A DNA stretch of 64,000 nt, taken from NCBI RefSeq assembly GCF_988242995.1, contig NZ_OZ547043.1. One strand, given 5' to 3'. Numbering within the stretch: position 1 is the first letter of the stretch; every line of letters begins with the position of its first letter. This document shows positions 3,526 through 18,603 of the stretch, one piece after another. The position numbers and the translations under genes are program-made. A model generated the notes under the pieces. The model saw only the letters and a list, made by a program, of their open reading frames with translations. It was not told the DNA's origin and did no database searches.

Positions 3526-3624
3526 TGTTTTTTAACCTCAACTCAGATTAAAATTCGTTTTGTTCAGTGAATGATCTTGCCGGATACACACTGTTCATAG
3601 CCTGCGCCATACGCAGGCTATTTC

Positions 3625-4337
3625 TTGTGCACAGAAAACCCCCAGCTAGGCTGGGGGTTCCGGAAAGCTTTCAGCTTTGAGCCAGTTATTAAAACCCCTT
3701 TTGATTTGTTAAAACACTTTGCGGTCTGGCAACTGCAAGTGTCAAACAAGAAATCAAAAGGGGGTCCCAATGGGGAACGAAAAGAGCTTAGCGCACACCC
3801 GATGGAACTGTAAATATCACATAGTTTTTGCGCCAAAATACCGAAGACAGGTGTTCTACAGAGAGAAGCGTAGAGCAATAGGCAGTATTTTGAGAAAGCT
3901 GTGTGAGTGGAAAAGCGTACGGATTCTGGAAGCTGAATGCTGTGCAGATTATATCCATATGCTTGTGGAGATCCCGCCCAAAATGAGCGTATCCGGCTTT
4001 ATGGGATATCTGAAAGGGAAAAGCAGTCTGATGCTTTACGAGCAGTTTGGTGATTTGAAATTCAAATACAGGAACAGGGAGTTCTGGTGCAGAGGGTACT
4101 ACGTCGATACAGTGGGTAAGAACACGGCGAAGATACAGGATTACATAAAGCACCAGCTTGAAGAGGATAAAATGGGAGAGCAGTTATCGATTCCCTATCC
4201 GGGCAGCCCGTTTACGGGCCGTAAGTAACGAAGTTGGATGCAAATGTCAGATCGTGTGCGCCTGTTAGGGCGCGGCTGGTAAGAGAGCCTTATAGGCGCA
4301 TTTGAAAAACCTCCGGCTATGCCGGAGGATATTTATT
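3625..4337 (+). mobile_element. IS200-family insertion sequence (IS200/IS605 family, tnpA only), copy 1
   Basis: About 713 bp identical to 16039..16751; left-end perfect palindrome cccccagctaggctggggg; single Y1 transposase ORF; 3' end hairpin cctccggctatgccggagg. Confidence 0.9.
3770..4228 (+). CDS. tnpA: IS200 transposase TnpA (HUH/Y1 type)
   Basis: MGNEKSLAHTRWNCKYHIVFAPKYRRQVFY...; classic IS200 TnpA sequence with H-x-H motif (YIHMLVEIPP); SD aagggggt upstream. Confidence 0.9.
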   Translation: MGNEKSLAHTRWNCKYHIVFAPKYRRQVFYREKRRAIGSILRKLCEWKSVRILEAECCADYIHMLVEIPPKMSVSGFMGYLKGKSSLMLYEQFGDLKFKYRNREFWCRGYYVDTVGKNTAKIQDYIKHQLEEDKMGEQLSIPYPGSPFTGRK

Positions 4338-4613: not shown

Positions 4614-4687
4614 GTTTTTCTCCTTAATTAAGGTTGAGCGAATACCTGCCATTTCTGGCATAAATTTAGTTTCGAATAGTCAATTAA

Positions 4688-4858
4688 TTAAAGTTCATGT
4701 GCCATCTGGTCTTTTTCGGCACAAGCTTCACTGCAATATTTTCTCGGTTCGTCTTTTGATAAAATCCCGTGCATGAAGTGAAGCATTCTTTCAATAGCTT
4801 TGCTTTCTTCAACGTCTTTTTTGCAAAGGTGGTAAGCACATTTTATTTTCTTAGTCAT
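4688..4858 (-). CDS. ydaE: Small Cys-rich protein YdaE (56 aa)
   Basis: Hand translation [56 protein letters not shown]; start overlaps kilR stop (TGATG); below ORF-track length cutoff. Confidence 0.7.
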   Translation of the reverse strand: MTKKIKCAYHLCKKDVEESKAIERMLHFMHGILSKDEPRKYCSEACAEKDQMAHEL

Positions 4859-5079
4859 CACCATGACTCCGCCTTTACAGGTAAACCATCACGACCGAGG
4901 AAGACTTTAATCATGCGGTCAGTAATGCATGTTTTTGTGGTCAGGTTACGAATATATAGTTTTCGCTTTTTAATATTGTTTGCCGAGGCAATATATGTCC
5001 GGCCTTCATGAAGAACATAATCGCCAGGAGTCACACACTGACGTGGTATTTCATCAGTTCCGAAGTGATGTGCAATCAT
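4858..5079 (-). CDS. kilR: Cell-division inhibitor KilR (FtsZ inhibitor)
   Basis: 73-aa product [38 protein letters not shown]... matches K-12 KilR. Confidence 0.85.
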
Positions 5080-5520: not shown

Positions 5521-6009
5521 ATGTTGGATGTATTTACTCCATTGTTGAAACTTTTTGCTAACGAGCCACTCGAAAGACTTATGTATACGATTATCATTTT
5601 TGGTCTCACTCTCTGGCTGATACCGAAAGAGTTTACTGCCGCATTCAATGCTTATACTGAAATACCTTGGCTCTTTCAGATTATCGTTTTTGCCTTTTCT
5701 TTCGTGGTCGCCATTTCCTTCTCAAGATTGCGAGCACATATTCAAAAGCATTATTCATTACTACCAGAGCAACGAGTATTGCTTCGTTTATCTGAGAAAG
5801 AAATCGCTGTATTTAAAGATTTCCTTAAAACAGGAAATCTTATTATCACTTCTCCTTGCCGTAACCCGGTTATGAAAAAATTAGAACGGAAGGGCATCAT
5901 TCAACATCAGAGTGATAGCGCAAACTGTTCTTATTATCTCGTCACCGAAAAATACTCCCATTTTATGAAGTTATTCTGGAACAGCAGGAGTAGACGTTTT
6001 AATCGTTAG
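5521..6009 (+). CDS. sieB: Superinfection exclusion protein B
   Basis: 162-aa product from MLDVFTPLLKLFANEPLERLMYTIIIFGLTLWLIP... matches K-12 SieB; membrane segments visible. Confidence 0.9.
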   Translation: MLDVFTPLLKLFANEPLERLMYTIIIFGLTLWLIPKEFTAAFNAYTEIPWLFQIIVFAFSFVVAISFSRLRAHIQKHYSLLPEQRVLLRLSEKEIAVFKDFLKTGNLIITSPCRNPVMKKLERKGIIQHQSDSANCSYYLVTEKYSHFMKLFWNSRSRRFNR

Positions 6010-6306: not shown

Positions 6307-6475
6307 CTTATCTCTCCCCTTAACGCCGGGTGGCGGAACTAACTGCTGCACTGCAAAATTTGAATCCCGCCGTCATGTTCATACGCCTCGGGCTGGCTAC
6401 TTAACCCCTTACCACTGCCTGGTAACTCGAAGTATTGCCCGGCGTTCTGTGGGGCGGGGTGGGTGGTATGCTGGA

Positions 6476-6517
6476 ACTATAGGTAATGCCTAATTGATTG
6501 TCAATAGGCTATGCCTA
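6476..6517 (-). promoter_or_regulatory. Leftward early promoter (PL-like) with repressor operator half-sites
   Basis: Minus strand -35 TTGACA (6504..6499), 17-bp spacer, -10 TATAGT (6481..6476); palindrome TAGGCtatGCCTA at 6505..6517 and GCCTAAT half-site in the spacer. Confidence 0.55.
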
Positions 6518-6614
6518 ATGTTTTGAGCGTAACCTAATAGGTGATGGCGACAGCAGAAAGTGATGGGGGGGTTAAATAACGGAATCCAGGAGTTTTCCGT
6601 CAGACCATATAAGT

Positions 6615-14503: not shown

Positions 14504-15103
14504 ATGGCGCATATACAACTGGTCAAACAAACCTCTTCCGGATTACTTCTCCCGGCGACGCCGGAGAGTTGTGATTTTCTGCATCAAATCAAAATAGGCG
14601 AGTGGATACACGCAGACTTTAAGCGTGTGCGTAACTACGCATTCCACAAGCGTTTTTTCAAACTCCTGCAACTGGGATTCGATTACTGGACTCCGGTCGG
14701 TGGGGCGATCACGCCTCGCGAACGAGAACAGCTGTCTGGTTTCGTTGATTACCTGTGCGAATCAGTTGGTCGGGAACACACGCCAGCCCTGAGTGATGCC
14801 GCAGAGCAATATCTGAATACAGTTGCGACACGCAGAACCCGGGATACGGCATTGCTAAAGTCGTTTGAGGCTTTTCGCGAGTGGGTAACCATTCAGGCTG
14901 GATTTTACACCGAACATTTTTATCCGGACGGTAGCCGCGGGCGTCGGGCAAAATCTATCGCTTTTGCGAATATGGACGAAACCGAGTTTCAGCAGGTTTA
15001 TAAATCTGTTCTGAATGTGCTGTGGAACTGGATTCTGTTCCGTAAATTTTCCTCTCCGGAACAAGTCGAAAATGTGGCCGCGCAGCTGCTGGAGTTTGCG
15101 TAA
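14504..15103 (+). CDS. Phage protein, DUF1367-like (nin-region)
   Basis: 199-aa ORF MAHIQLVKQTSSGLLLPATPESCDFLHQIKIGEW...; family call from memory and position before the YbcO-like gene. Confidence 0.5.
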   Translation: MAHIQLVKQTSSGLLLPATPESCDFLHQIKIGEWIHADFKRVRNYAFHKRFFKLLQLGFDYWTPVGGAITPREREQLSGFVDYLCESVGREHTPALSDAAEQYLNTVATRRTRDTALLKSFEAFREWVTIQAGFYTEHFYPDGSRGRRAKSIAFANMDETEFQQVYKSVLNVLWNWILFRKFSSPEQVENVAAQLLEFA

Positions 15104-15393
15104 TGGTGGATTTACGTAAAGCGGCGCGGGGGCAGATGTGCACCGTCAGAATTCCTGGCTACTGCAATCACAATCCCGAAACATCTGTGCTGGCGCATTA
15201 CAGGCTGGCGGGGACGTGCGGAACAGCGACAAAACCACACGATATGCAGGCAGCGATTGCCTGTAGCTCATGCCACGATTTAATCGACGGGCGGGTAAAA
15301 ACCAGCGATTACACCAAAGAAGAATTACGCCTGATGCATGCAGAAGGTGTTTTTCGCACACAAGAAATCTGGAGAAAGGAAGGTTATTTATGA
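15103..15393 (+). CDS. YbcO-like putative nuclease (DUF1364)
   Basis: 96-aa ORF MVDLRKAARGQMCTVRIPGYCNHNPETSVLAH...CSSCHDLID; resembles DLP12 YbcO; Cys/His motifs. Confidence 0.7.
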   Translation: MVDLRKAARGQMCTVRIPGYCNHNPETSVLAHYRLAGTCGTATKPHDMQAAIACSSCHDLIDGRVKTSDYTKEELRLMHAEGVFRTQEIWRKEGYL

Positions 15394-15932
15394 TTTACCC
15401 AACAAATACAGGCAAAAGCGGGGAACACCTTCGTCTCACCACGCTGGAAAGTGTCTGGATTCAGGGAAAACTGCGCATGTGGGGGCGCTGGTCGTATATT
15501 GGCGGCGGTAAGACGGGAAATATGTTTAACCAGTTGCTGGCATCCAAAAAATTGACGAAAACAGCCGTCAATGAAGCCCTGCGCAGGATGAAAAAAGCGG
15601 GAATAGAGAAACCTGAGCTGGAAGCGTTTTTGCGAGAGATGATCAATGGCAAGCAAAAGACCTGGCTGGCGCATTGTACTGATGCAGAGGCGTTATGTAT
15701 TGATAGAGTCATAAGTGAGGTGCTGGCAGAGCATCCTGGATTGATTAGTGTCCTCCGGCAACGGTATGAAGGACGGGGGATGACTAAGCGCAAAATGGCT
15801 GAATTGCTAAATGATGCACATCCTGAGTGGTGTTTTAGCACATGCGAAAAGCGAATTGCTAATTGGTTGGCTGTTGCTGAGTATGCCCTATATATTCCCA
15901 TGCGAGAATTATTTGCTCAAAAAATAGCTTGA
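15390..15932 (+). CDS. Putative late-gene antitermination protein (Q-like) by position
   Basis: 180 aa from MIYPTNTGKSGEHLRLTT...; last gene of the nin block before the lysis cassette; family not confirmed. Confidence 0.4.
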   Translation: MIYPTNTGKSGEHLRLTTLESVWIQGKLRMWGRWSYIGGGKTGNMFNQLLASKKLTKTAVNEALRRMKKAGIEKPELEAFLREMINGKQKTWLAHCTDAEALCIDRVISEVLAEHPGLISVLRQRYEGRGMTKRKMAELLNDAHPEWCFSTCEKRIANWLAVAEYALYIPMRELFAQKIA

Positions 15933-16038
15933 TTTTTTACGCATAAACTGCTTCAATTCCGGTATGCTTCGCAAAGCTGTATCGCGAGGCGAACCAAGCG
16001 CATGAACTTTACCAGAACCCGCCATTGAGCGGGTTTTG

Positions 16039-16751
16039 TTGTGCACAGAAAACCCCCAGCTAGGCTGGGGGTTCCGGAAAGCTTTCAGCTTTGAGCCAGT
16101 TATTAAAACCCCTTTTGATTTGTTAAAACACTTTGCGGTCTGGCAACTGCAAGTGTCAAACAAGAAATCAAAAGGGGGTCCCAATGGGGAACGAAAAGAG
16201 CTTAGCGCACACCCGATGGAACTGTAAATATCACATAGTTTTTGCGCCAAAATACCGAAGACAGGTGTTCTACAGAGAGAAGCGTAGAGCAATAGGCAGT
16301 ATTTTGAGAAAGCTGTGTGAGTGGAAAAGCGTACGGATTCTGGAAGCTGAATGCTGTGCAGATTATATCCATATGCTTGTGGAGATCCCGCCCAAAATGA
16401 GCGTATCCGGCTTTATGGGATATCTGAAAGGGAAAAGCAGTCTGATGCTTTACGAGCAGTTTGGTGATTTGAAATTCAAATACAGGAACAGGGAGTTCTG
16501 GTGCAGAGGGTACTACGTCGATACAGTGGGTAAGAACACGGCGAAGATACAGGATTACATAAAGCACCAGCTTGAAGAGGATAAAATGGGAGAGCAGTTA
16601 TCGATTCCCTATCCGGGCAGCCCGTTTACGGGCCGTAAGTAACGAAGTTGGATGCAAATGTCAGATCGTGTGCGCCTGTTAGGGCGCGGCTGGTAAGAGA
16701 GCCTTATAGGCGCATTTGAAAAACCTCCGGCTATGCCGGAGGATATTTATT
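16039..16751 (+). mobile_element. IS200-family insertion sequence, copy 2 (identical to copy 1)
   Basis: Identical to 3625..4337 (offset 12414 bp), same orientation; inserted between Q-like gene and lysis region. Confidence 0.9.
16184..16642 (+). CDS. tnpA: IS200 transposase TnpA
   Basis: Identical to the 3770..4228 product. Confidence 0.9.
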   Translation: MGNEKSLAHTRWNCKYHIVFAPKYRRQVFYREKRRAIGSILRKLCEWKSVRILEAECCADYIHMLVEIPPKMSVSGFMGYLKGKSSLMLYEQFGDLKFKYRNREFWCRGYYVDTVGKNTAKIQDYIKHQLEEDKMGEQLSIPYPGSPFTGRK

Positions 16752-16864
16752 GTTTCTGGTACTGGCGAACCTGATGTTTCATTTCTGGAGCGCGATTCCT
16801 GGCGGAATACCTAGAATCGAGACATTCTGGTAAAATTGTTTTCAGTACAGGATGTGGAGGTGAG

Positions 16865-17434
16865 ATGAGAGAACTACCTAAAGATTATTTTTTAGGAGTA
16901 GATGATGAGCTCGTCGATTATCTTGAAAAACAAGGGGAAGAGACGATACGAGAGATTCATCTTTCTAACAAAACCAATGTTGAGAATGGATACAAACTTC
17001 TGAACATTCAGATTGTTGGAATTGGTTCATCTTTTTTATTGCTGACACAGAAAACTAATTTCGATTTTCTCACCGCCGGAATTACCACATTTACATTACT
17101 ATGGACATGGTGCGCCATTTACTTGGTATGTACTGGTTTATCTGTGAAGGTTAGGGGCCTGATCAATGCCCCTCCTGATCATCTATATCATGAAAAATAT
17201 AAGGATATGGAGCCCTCGAGCTTTAAAATATTCGCTGATGCAGGATATTTAGGACCTGATAAGTTATTGCCGCTTATACGAAGGTATCGCCTTGTTGACT
17301 TGAGTGATACAGCAAGAGAGTTACTGTTGGAAAATGAGAAAATCCGCACGAGTCTCGATAAAGCAAGGATGTATACCATCCTTGCTCCGGTAGCGGCGAT
17401 GTTTATCTCGGCTGTTTTTTTATATGTTCAATGA
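16865..17434 (+). CDS. Hypothetical membrane protein (189 aa, about three predicted TM segments), AT-rich moron
   Basis: Hydrophobic stretches LLNIQIVGIGSSFLLL, GITTFTLLWTWCAIYLVCTGL and MYTILAPVAAMFISAVFLYV; visibly AT-rich versus neighbours. Confidence 0.55.
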   Translation: MRELPKDYFLGVDDELVDYLEKQGEETIREIHLSNKTNVENGYKLLNIQIVGIGSSFLLLTQKTNFDFLTAGITTFTLLWTWCAIYLVCTGLSVKVRGLINAPPDHLYHEKYKDMEPSSFKIFADAGYLGPDKLLPLIRRYRLVDLSDTARELLLENEKIRTSLDKARMYTILAPVAAMFISAVFLYVQ

Positions 17435-17564
17435 CTGAGTCGGCAGAATCTCCAACAAAAACACGACGTGTAGCAAAGTCTGTAGTACTTTGTGTTGGAG
17501 TTGGTTTTGGTGCCACGGGGTGCTGAGGTTTATTTTCACCTTGTGGTTTGTTTTTTTCAGACAT
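17403..17564 (-). CDS. Hypothetical small Lys/Pro-rich protein (53 aa)
   Basis: ATG at 17564 with AGAGGA SD 7 nt upstream; MSEKNKPQGENKPQHPVAPKPTPTQSTTDF...; convergent with and overlapping the 189-aa ORF. Confidence 0.35.
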   Translation of the reverse strand: MSEKNKPQGENKPQHPVAPKPTPTQSTTDFATRRVFVGDSADSVIEHIKKQPR

Positions 17565-17659
17565 AAAAATCCTCTTTGTTTGAATTGTTACTTTTGGCGA
17601 TTTAACGATATCAAACACGAGTATATACCGCCAGAAGCTTAATCTGGCACTCCATCTGA

Positions 17660-17683
17660 CCCCGGCATGTCCCGGGGCTTTTT
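17660..17683 (+). terminator. Intrinsic terminator upstream of holin (tR'-like candidate)
   Basis: GC stem ccccgg/ccgggg with 6-nt loop followed by cttttt. Confidence 0.5.
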
Positions 17684-17781
17684 CGTTGTTAGGCTCCGGA
17701 AACATCCTCGACTTCTTGTTAGCAAGCCTGAGAGCCTGAATCTTACACTTAGCACCATCCGAACTCTCGGAGGTGAGGCTT

Positions 17782-18123
17782 ATGAAAATGCACAATGCCC
17801 CTCATTCCTGGCCTGACTTACTGGAACTCTTACAAAGTTGGTGGCGTGGAGATACGCCGCTGGGTGCAGTGGTTATGTCAATTATTATGGCTGGTTTGCG
17901 CATTGCCTATTTTGGCGGTGGCGGCGGCTGGAAACGAAAAACGCTTGAGATTCTGCTTTGTGGTGCTCTGACGCTGACCTTTGCATCCGCGCTTGAGTAT
18001 GTCGGATGGCCTAAATCACTTTCTGTTGCCATTGGTGGTGGGGTGGGGCTGATTGGTGTTGATGCTATTCGTAGTGCGGCAATGAGGGTCATCGGTAACA
18101 AGTTCGGTGCCCATAAGGAGTAA
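17782..18123 (+). CDS. Holin
   Basis: N-terminus MKMHN... gives a dual-start motif (ATG 17782 and 17788) with GGAGGTGAGG SD; hydrophobic segments; immediately upstream of endolysin. Confidence 0.8.
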   Translation: MKMHNAPHSWPDLLELLQSWWRGDTPLGAVVMSIIMAGLRIAYFGGGGGWKRKTLEILLCGALTLTFASALEYVGWPKSLSVAIGGGVGLIGVDAIRSAAMRVIGNKFGAHKE

Positions 18124-18126
18124 TTA

Positions 18127-18603
18127 ATGCAGACACTTAATTCCCAGCGTAAAGCTTTCCTTGATATGGTGGCATGGTCAGAAGGAACAGATAACGGACG
18201 GCAGAAAACCAGAAATCACGGTTATGATATTATTGTCGGTGGCGAACTGTTCACTGATTACTCCGATCACCCCCGCAAACTTGTCACGCTAAATCCGAAA
18301 CTCAAATCAACAGCCGCTGGACGTTACCAGCTTCTTTCACGCTGGTGGGATGCCTACCGCAAGCAACTTGGCCTGAAAGATTTTTCTCCAGAAAGTCAGG
18401 ATGCTGTAGCGCTGCAGCAGATTAAAGAGCGTGGCGCTTTGCCGATGATTGATCGCGGTGATATCCGTCAGGCTATCGACCGTTGCAGCAATATATGGGC
18501 TTCACTGCCGGGCGCTGGTTATGGTCAGTTCGAGCATAAGGCTGACAGTCTGATTGCAAAATTCAAAGAAGCTGGCGGAACGGTCAGAGAGATTGAGGTA
18601 TGA
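18127..18603 (+). CDS. R: Endolysin (lambda R-like lytic transglycosylase)
   Basis: [34 protein letters not shown]...; near-identical to lambda R from memory. Confidence 0.95.

Follow-up and report, generated by a model that had tools for sequence, protein, structure and literature searches.

Background

In the sense defined for phages HK97 and HK022, a moron is an additional transcription unit that lies between conserved genes of a phage. Exclusion by lambda RexA/RexB is expressed from the prophage, RexB being a membrane channel and RexA its cytoplasmic activator, whereas T4 Imm, P22 SieA and HK97 gp15 block the DNA entry of an incoming phage without killing the cell. The small cytoplasmic protein RIII of T4 binds the cytoplasmic domain of the holin T. 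SLATT proteins, which have two to three transmembrane helices, are predicted pore-forming effectors of CBASS, RADAR, DRT and AbiA (PMC9226505; bioRxiv 10.64898/2026.04.29.721553), and the antiviral hotspots of P2-like phages and P4-like satellites are fixed loci of replaceable cargo (PMC9122126). Here we describe a pair of convergent open reading frames, ORF189 and ORF53, in a 64,000-nucleotide (nt) stretch of contig NZ_OZ547043.1 (NCBI RefSeq assembly GCF_988242995.1), referred to below as the window. The window includes a Rac-like lambdoid prophage of Escherichia coli, in which the block carrying the pair lies between the Q gene, with an IS200 insertion, and the lysis genes. The two genes form a mobile cargo cassette that behaves like a moron, placed between Q and the lysis genes of lambdoid prophages, and we tentatively read the pair as a membrane-permeabilizing effector gated by a small partner.

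Results and discussion

A conserved pair of convergent genes

ORF189 (16865-17434, + strand; PHROG 11870) begins with an ATG 4 nt after the Shine-Dalgarno sequence GGAGG (16856-16860), and its product of 189 amino acids (aa) is predicted to be an inner-membrane protein with three transmembrane helices and a SLATT-like fold. ORF53 (17403-17564, - strand; PHROG 14506), whose ATG lies 5 nt from the Shine-Dalgarno sequence AGAGGA (17570-17575), encodes a putatively soluble Pro/Gln/Lys-rich protein of 53 aa; its 3' end and that of ORF189 share 32 nt. An earlier note on this DNA had described a protein with about three hydrophobic helices, a convergent, overlapping Lys/Pro-rich frame with a good Shine-Dalgarno sequence, and a terminator about 100 bp before the holin gene. 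All three were recovered, the last as an intrinsic terminator (17660-17685) that ends 99 nt before the holin ATG (17782).

The stretch 16746-17800 is shared, at 99.5-99.8% identity, by 222 of 5426 complete E. coli genomes and four induced phages (vB_EcoS-473R12, -666R9, -673R7 and -613R10). ORF189 homologues, which Enterobacterales prophages carry down to ~50% identity, form 104 clusters at 90% identity from Escherichia, Klebsiella, Citrobacter, Morganella, Providencia, Proteus, Serratia, Yersinia, Pantoea, Sodalis and Salmonella, nearly all of exactly 189 aa and none with a name, and are present in 112 IMG/VR loci and 9 species genomes. An exhaustive hidden Markov model (HMM) search of 1.84 billion cluster representatives gave only 103 relatives, counted as representatives at 50% identity. 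The occurrence of the block (222 genomes, 104 protein clusters, 112 IMG/VR loci) is far above chance. Two records with other host labels, PP818812.1 (Actinobacillus phage vB_Apl-pPE4; L099) and OM284015.1 (Elizabethkingia phage EKP1), also carry this enterobacterial-type late region or element; in vB_Apl-pPE4 the cassette is accompanied by Hok/Gef, DUF1367, DUF1364 and Q. This points either to an unexpectedly wide range of hosts or to doubtful host labels.

A survey of the locus in related prophages, as the earlier note had proposed, was made on 91 fetched loci, and the cassette is conserved across them. Every intact locus has a small convergent frame that shares its last 20-35 nt with the ORF189 homologue, the five seeming exceptions being four diverged copies and one disrupted locus. 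The pairwise distances of ORF189 and ORF53 correlate (r = 0.74, a value reached in 0 of 2000 permutations), and no recombinants were found in ~90 ORF189 loci and 56 ORF53 loci, although these diverge to ~50% identity. Distant homologues occur in a Pandoraea myovirus tail cluster (Mu/P2-like) and in a siphovirus tail region rich in other morons, and there too a small convergent Pro/Lys-rich frame overlaps the 3' end. On this comparative sequence evidence ORF189 and ORF53 are real genes, and they form an obligate, co-diverging pair.

ORF53 homologues align as MS(E/Q)xNKPxGExKPQ, a Pro/Gln/Lys-rich linker of variable length, DF-x3-R-x2-VGDSA(D/E) and a basic tail, and the product is predicted to be a small, soluble and largely disordered protein. 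The gene was annotated independently by the Prokaryotic Genome Annotation Pipeline (PGAP) and by the depositor of one phage record. The PGAP form (4658-4873 of the related locus L001, equivalent to window positions 17403-17618) has 71 aa, with a GTG start 18 codons upstream that falls inside a conserved non-coding element described below. Conservation across loci of the ATG start, its Shine-Dalgarno sequence and the encoded protein favours the 53-aa form. One locus (L163, ~6430-6580 in element orientation) is a deletion derivative that has lost ORF189 and retains, directly after the tR' terminator and beside the conserved element, only the first ~15 codons of an ORF53 homologue (MSQSNKPTGESKPQP...).

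It might be supposed that ORF53 is not translated at all, and that a conserved antisense or leader RNA here regulates ORF189 or late transcription: the frame is short and of low complexity, and the sequence just upstream of it is more conserved than the coding part. Against this, every locus keeps the ATG and Shine-Dalgarno sequence, length changes are all in frame, the C-terminal peptide motif persists as the DNA diverges, the ratio of nonsynonymous to synonymous change (pN/pS) is 0.57 outside the overlap, and no Rfam family matches at ORF53. We consider an RNA role in place of a protein highly improbable.

Predicted fold and predicted contact

ORF189 has three hydrophobic segments free of charged residues (46-62, 69-92 and 169-188) and a Lys/Arg-rich segment (93-168). 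From hydropathy and charge, its acidic N-terminal helix is placed in the cytoplasm (N-in), followed by a hairpin of the first two transmembrane helices with a periplasmic loop of 6 residues, a basic cytoplasmic domain of ~75 residues (93-168), and a third transmembrane helix that leaves the C-terminus outside. The AlphaFold2 model (mean predicted local distance difference test score, pLDDT, 83) has helices at 14-62, 68-92 and 134-188 in a long three-helix arrangement.

The earlier note could not place either protein in a family, and database searches do not place them either. Neither ORF189 (even at E <= 10) nor ORF53 matches Pfam; the two match nothing in NCBIfam, and nothing at E <= 0.1 in PADLOC-DB 2.0.0; up to 72 family members gave no significant match in these databases; and both PHROGs (11870 and 14506) are of unknown function. 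A PDB profile search returned only noise (GpsB, E = 0.057), and a wider protein search with a broad alignment found no new families and no Pfam-annotated relatives. The DefensePredictor supplements (three of them in part) do not list the accessions WP_001208722 and WP_224482377.

In a Foldseek search of AFDB50 with the ORF189 model its own relatives rank first, and SLATT (2TM effector) proteins match over the full length of the predicted fold (TM-score 0.75-0.81). Models labelled 'Holin-X, holin superfamily III' and 'phage holin family protein' were also returned (TM-score 0.70-0.79). The best matches among ten distant members of the family, all sub-threshold, are to the PADLOC CBASS '2TM Effector' (E = 0.002), CARF_TM (0.005) and PycTM (0.016) profiles and to NCBIfam SLATT_1 (0.1). 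ORF189 has the features by which SLATT proteins are described (PMC9226505) insofar as it is a small protein with two to three transmembrane helices and cytoplasmic helices, and its predicted model has the global fold; it lacks a sequence-profile match to them (Pfam CL0676, NCBIfam NF033634, PADLOC 2TM/SLATT). SLATT/2TM effectors resemble it in size (~160-200 aa), in an N-terminal helix leading into a transmembrane hairpin, in a long C-terminal helix, in being carried on mobile elements including prophages, and in acting, as is proposed here for ORF189, with a partner gene. They differ in that ORF189 has no significant HMM match, that its third helix is a clear transmembrane segment, and that its partner is a convergent 53-aa non-enzymatic protein rather than an operonic cyclase, reverse transcriptase, TIR or SLOG protein. 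Based on the SLATT-like fold of the model, the sub-threshold matches and the literature on SLATT proteins, ORF189 most likely works like a SLATT effector.

A direct contact between the two proteins is predicted by an AlphaFold model of an ORF53-(GGGGS)6-ORF189 fusion, built on a paired alignment of 29 such fusions. The N-terminus of ORF53 and the linker have pLDDT < 50, and residues 24-50 of ORF53 have 63-72. The only two beta-strands of the model are F36-G38 of ORF53 and V96-G98 of ORF189, the latter in the loop after the second transmembrane helix. This loop has the lowest confidence of the monomer model and gains ~9 pLDDT points in the fusion. The layout of a type II toxin-antitoxin system or related abortive-infection module, in which the genes are co-transcribed in the same orientation, with the antitoxin gene leading or overlapping, is not found here, the genes being convergent with overlapping 3' ends; of the pairing typical of such systems, co-inheritance is seen and contact is only predicted, in the fused-chain model.

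ORF189 might instead act in superinfection exclusion at the inner membrane, blocking the entry of incoming DNA without killing, with ORF53 modulating or stabilizing it. It is a moron protein of the prophage at the inner membrane with minimal periplasmic exposure and a promoter-like element of its own, and its homologues are morons in tail-gene regions, where the gene for HK97 gp15 also sits. However, ORF189 matches no named exclusion family in Pfam or PHROGs, its best match among the BFVD viral models has E = 0.26 (the presence of Imm, SieA and gp15 in BFVD not being verified), its best fold matches are SLATT proteins of the effector type, and an obligate soluble partner is, to our knowledge, not a feature of Imm, SieA or gp15. 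Exclusion of this non-lethal kind is improbable.

Transcription signals

A pR'-like late promoter (TTGGCT-18-TATATT, 15867-15896, + strand), located by a consensus scan, overlaps the 3' end of Q and is followed by a tR'-like hairpin and T-tract (16013-16042, + strand; hairpin 16013-16038; -16.1 kcal/mol, z = -4.3). The terminator is at the same site in L001, a relative that has no IS200 (3979-4012), and in relatives GTTTCTGG comes directly after it. Each Q type in the relatives has its own promoter-like site, a leader of 60-130 nt and a terminator, and we read these signals as putative pR' and tR'. A terminator stands directly before the cassette in almost all loci.

Upstream of ORF189, the hexamer TAAAAT (16831-16836) with a TG at 16828-16829 forms a putative extended -10 element (TGgTAAAAT, 16828-16836, + strand) 28 nt before the ATG. 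Across loci it stands 28-35 nt before the start, a nearly constant distance within variable flanks, and of 28 diverse loci 20 have it exactly and 6 with a single mismatch. A promoter of its own is therefore probable for ORF189, whose expression need not be late-only. Identification of this element with pR' was rejected, because a promoter and terminator of its own lie upstream of it for each Q type. One allele (L062, ~5975-6000) has no TAAAAT, and a terminator immediately precedes its ORF189 start codon; late read-through may be the only source of ORF189 expression there.

On the other side of the pair, a 27-nt element (17587-17614, - strand) with a -35-like TTGATA begins ~22 nt upstream of the ORF53 ATG. 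Its pattern on the + strand is GTTAYTTYTGGCGATTTAACRATAYCA, and the - strand reads TTGATATCGTTAAATCGCCAAAAGTAAC; the window copy is longer by one conserved base at its 3' end (28 nt). The element is near-invariant across loci whose coding regions are only ~65-70% identical, and is present in 271 of the 5426 complete E. coli genomes. A search of IMG/VR with it returned 108 stretches, of which 105 were analysed (L100-L204): ORF189 and ORF53 are present in 59, another 11 are truncated, and the remaining 35 have different cargo, with an unrelated leftward gene starting ~22 nt from the element. These other genes encode an ECs_2282-type Zn-ribbon protein, YmfI-like proteins, and members of PHROG 5663, 26342, 3983 and 1244; counting ORF53, the element heads at least seven leftward cargo families, all of unknown function. 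The six others gave no significant PADLOC match, and a literature search on ECs_2282 and YmfI yielded only unrelated papers. The idea that the element is specific to the ORF189/ORF53 cassette was therefore rejected, as it heads at least six unrelated cargo genes too, and it appears to be a generic leftward expression signal.

Between this element and the terminator, most loci have a conserved hairpin (GCCAGA-N7-TCTGGC, 17630-17648, + strand). It was compared at the same position in L005, L009, L062, L063, L073 and L091, without statistics: L062 has a compensatory change (GCCAGT/ACTGGC), and L063 and L073 have G-U pairs only when the + strand is read. The hairpin may form a structure at the 3' end of an RNA, or may serve as an additional element of termination. 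The terminator itself, found by consensus scan (17660-17685, + strand), has a 6-bp stem of G and C only (17660-17677) followed by CTTTTTCG; the terminator and the hairpin before it have a joint folding energy of -21.1 kcal/mol (z = -2.1). Most related loci have a + strand terminator at the equivalent position, and some have a tRNA gene instead. The terminator would shield the holin gene from rightward transcription of the cassette.

A cargo slot between Q and the lysis genes

The pair is found downstream of four Q families (PHROG 753, 127, 79 and 304), or alternatively of an inserted antirepressor gene, and upstream of four holin families (PHROG 126, 20, 198 and 217). In divergent loci, DNA homology extends from ~60 nt before the ORF189 ATG to 50-200 nt past the ORF53 ATG. 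On the backbone of the window, L080 has the pair exchanged for an allele of 58% identity, and L138 and L122, on the same Rac-like backbone and with the tR', hairpin and terminator of the window, carry other cargo: a rightward frame of 76 aa convergent with a YmfI-like leftward gene. Because tR' and the 27-nt element are common to loci with different cargo, they delimit a slot, bounded by tR' and GTTTCTGG on the left and by the 27-nt element on the right. The convergent layout of genes is typical of this slot, and the terminator and the sequence upstream of ORF53 belong to it and not to the cassette alone.

In two respects the cassette agrees with what is expected of a moron. Presence or absence between syntenic phages is seen in L138 and L122 (other cargo) and in L080 (58% allele), and the cassette has its own terminator (17660-17685) and a deviating base composition, the G+C content of ~16850-17600 being 0.37-0.42 vs 0.48-0.53 in the flanks. 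Candidate promoters of its own would be the conserved promoter-like sequences before ORF189 (TAAAAT) and ORF53 (the TTGATA-bearing element). The proposal of the earlier note that this is moron-type cargo is borne out by its presence or absence, its association with four Q and four holin families, its base composition and the terminators on both sides. The note called the block AT-rich, which is correct but modest, given the G+C values above. It also cited stx and bor as examples of cargo at this position: stx is one, but bor lies beyond Rz in lambdoid phages. As with stx and HK97-type morons at the Q-to-lysis junction, the cassette lies downstream of pR'/tR', is present or absent, and has its own base composition and terminator. 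Unlike stx, which is Q-dependent and co-oriented with late transcription, it has one gene facing the late operon and putative signals of its own for both genes, and its slot is bounded by conserved sequences and offers a leftward expression element that different cargo genes can reuse. The P2 and P4 hotspots are similar in that unrelated small cassettes replace one another between conserved flanks, but they belong to another phage family and locus, and the cargo of the present slot has no known function and no significant PADLOC match.

To the right of the element, a tRNA gene with a promoter-like site replaces the hairpin and terminator in many loci (L043, L045, L047, L101, L103 and L110), and several tRNA genes lie between tR' and the cassette in L063, a place where Stx phages likewise carry tRNA genes.

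The slot offers another account of the pair, as two unrelated cargo genes that travel together on account of the small slot and their overlap, ORF189 serving host physiology (ion or envelope homeostasis) and ORF53 being a separate small regulator. The slot routinely holds convergent rightward and leftward genes, such as the 76-aa frame and YmfI-like gene of L138, its leftward expression element is generic, and exchange at the conserved flanks would co-transfer whatever genes lie within. This account is nevertheless doubtful in view of the missing recombinants, in loci that diverge to ~50% identity, the correlated divergence of the two genes, the similar small convergent frame beside distant homologues outside the slot, and the predicted direct contact.

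Proposed mode of action

We tentatively favour a role for the pair in phage exclusion or abortive infection, as a membrane-permeabilizing effector gated by a small partner, a reading that draws on the predicted models and that we regard as plausible though short of probable. ORF189, going by its fold, would oligomerize and then permeabilize or depolarize the inner membrane. The conserved VGDSA segment of ORF53, going by the fusion model, would dock as a beta-strand on the juxtamembrane loop V96-G98 of ORF189, just after the second transmembrane helix, and this contact would gate ORF189, in the simplest case by keeping it inactive. In the lysogen, the sequence signals suggest that both genes would be transcribed from their own facing promoters, with terminators on both sides insulating the cassette so that the lysis genes stay silent. 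Two triggers can be imagined, both speculative. A superinfecting phage may remove or titrate a labile ORF53, leading to abortive infection or exclusion; alternatively, Q-antiterminated late transcription, being sense for ORF189 and antisense for ORF53, may shift the ratio towards ORF189 at lysis.

Such a system would resemble lambda RexA/RexB in pairing a polytopic protein of the inner membrane with a soluble one in a two-gene lambdoid unit, with depolarization on superinfection as proposed here. There is no sequence relationship, however; RexB has four transmembrane helices and RexA is large, and the rex genes form an operon in the immunity region, whereas ORF189 and ORF53 are convergent in the late region.

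The position of the cassette suggests a different role, in lysis timing, with ORF189 as a late holin-like or holin-modulating protein that helps or delays the holin, and ORF53 as its cytoplasmic regulator. In all enterobacterial loci the cassette is immediately upstream of the holin gene, within the Q-dependent late unit; the fold search returned the Holin-X and phage holin models noted above; and the L062 allele, without a -10 element and with a terminator right before the start, would be late-only. The parallel with T4 T/RIII would be a permeabilizing protein under the control of a small soluble binder, as proposed here, adjoining the lysis genes, and that with the predicted Holin-X family is a weak resemblance of fold. 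On the other hand, ORF189 has no holin HMM match (none in Pfam, PHROG 11870 being of unknown function; the holin is the adjacent gene), and the prophage already has a lambda-type dual-start holin within a set of holin, endolysin and Rz/Rz1 genes that is complete without the cassette. The cassette is dispensable, as sister prophages carry other cargo in its place; it combines with four unrelated holin families; its conserved -10 element is its own and its terminator closes it off from the holin gene; and its distant homologues are in tail-gene clusters, far from lysis genes. A core lysis function for ORF189 was rejected because sister prophages have the same lysis genes with other cargo and distant homologues lie away from lysis genes. 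An accessory role in lysis timing is unlikely, though it deserves consideration.

Several observations weigh against a gated effector of exclusion or abortive infection. None of 72 ORF189 family members matches a SLATT Pfam profile at E <= 0.1, and ORF189 and these members have no significant match to any SLATT or defence HMM. No nucleotide-generating or nucleotide-sensing partner (SMODS, SLOG, reverse transcriptase or TIR) was found: the neighbours of the cassette are Q-type antiterminators, antirepressors, holins and endolysins, and its sole constant partner is the 53-aa frame. ORF189 may accordingly be called SLATT-like by predicted fold, while the sequence match and partner of a SLATT member are lacking. 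The predicted contact was obtained by modelling the two proteins as one artificial chain, from 29 paired sequences, with moderate pLDDT and no predicted aligned error. The convergent layout and leftward signal belong to the slot and are common to unrelated cargo; the regulatory logic is thus not specific to ORF189 and ORF53, and part of their co-occurrence could be due to physical linkage. Since the cassette is inside the late operon, ORF189 must be strongly expressed late, which fits a role in lysis equally well. A literature search found no paper that names WP_001208722, WP_224482377 or either PHROG.

A bolder form of the gated-effector reading, which we put forward as a long shot, is a two-component system of membrane suicide or exclusion in which a SLATT-like pore would be closed by a disordered clamp of ~50 aa through a single beta-strand on the juxtamembrane loop, within a previously unrecognized lambdoid cargo hotspot whose leftward element would drive many unknown small genes. 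Convergent Q-dependent transcription would flip the ratio of effector to inhibitor on induction, and the system would both protect the lysogen from superinfection and help to depolarize the membrane at the prophage's own lysis.

The prophage setting and IS200

The block is preceded by genes for DUF1367 (14504-15103), DUF1364 (15103-15393) and a Q-type antiterminator (15390-15932; PHROG 753, E = 1.9e-79), the last followed by IS200. Downstream of the block are a lambda-family holin gene (17782-18123, + strand; PHROG 126, E = 5e-39, in agreement with the annotation of relatives), a GH24 endolysin gene (18127-18603), Rz/Rz1 and then trkG. The holin begins with MKM (17782-17790), the dual-start motif of the lambda S107/S105 type, which suggests that the prophage already encodes its own holin/antiholin pair.

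The IS200 insertion (~16043-16749, + strand; limits read from its junctions) is not part of the cassette. It lies directly 3' of the tR' hairpin, ends 82 nt upstream of the ORF189 -10 element, and is missing from the 222 E. coli genomes and four phages that have the same block; it places 0.7 kb between pR'/tR' and the late genes. An Rfam scan of the region returned nothing besides STnc490, a family of Hfq-binding small RNAs, at 16051-16174 (E = 7e-31); this match is IS200-associated, in the 5' region upstream of tnpA. A second copy of IS200 is at ~3628 of the window, and both copies are directly 3' of a terminator-like hairpin and T-rich run, with AGCCTGCG..CGCAGGCT-ATTTCTTG preceding the first (3600-3627) and AACCCGC..GCGGGTT-TTGTTGT preceding the second (16013-16042), which suggests a target preference common to both insertions.

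Conclusions

The cassette is carried by ~4% of complete E. coli genomes and by prophages of Enterobacterales, with no functional annotation. The slot that it occupies, with conserved boundaries and several uncharacterized families, makes systematic mining possible, as in the P2 and P4 hotspots. How SLATT-type effectors of anti-phage systems are activated is an open question (bioRxiv 10.64898/2026.04.29.721553); if the proposed reading is true, a minimal, enzyme-free SLATT-like protein with a 53-aa partner would provide a simple model of gating. As a candidate for a new defence or membrane-toxin module carried by prophages, the cassette is open to direct test.

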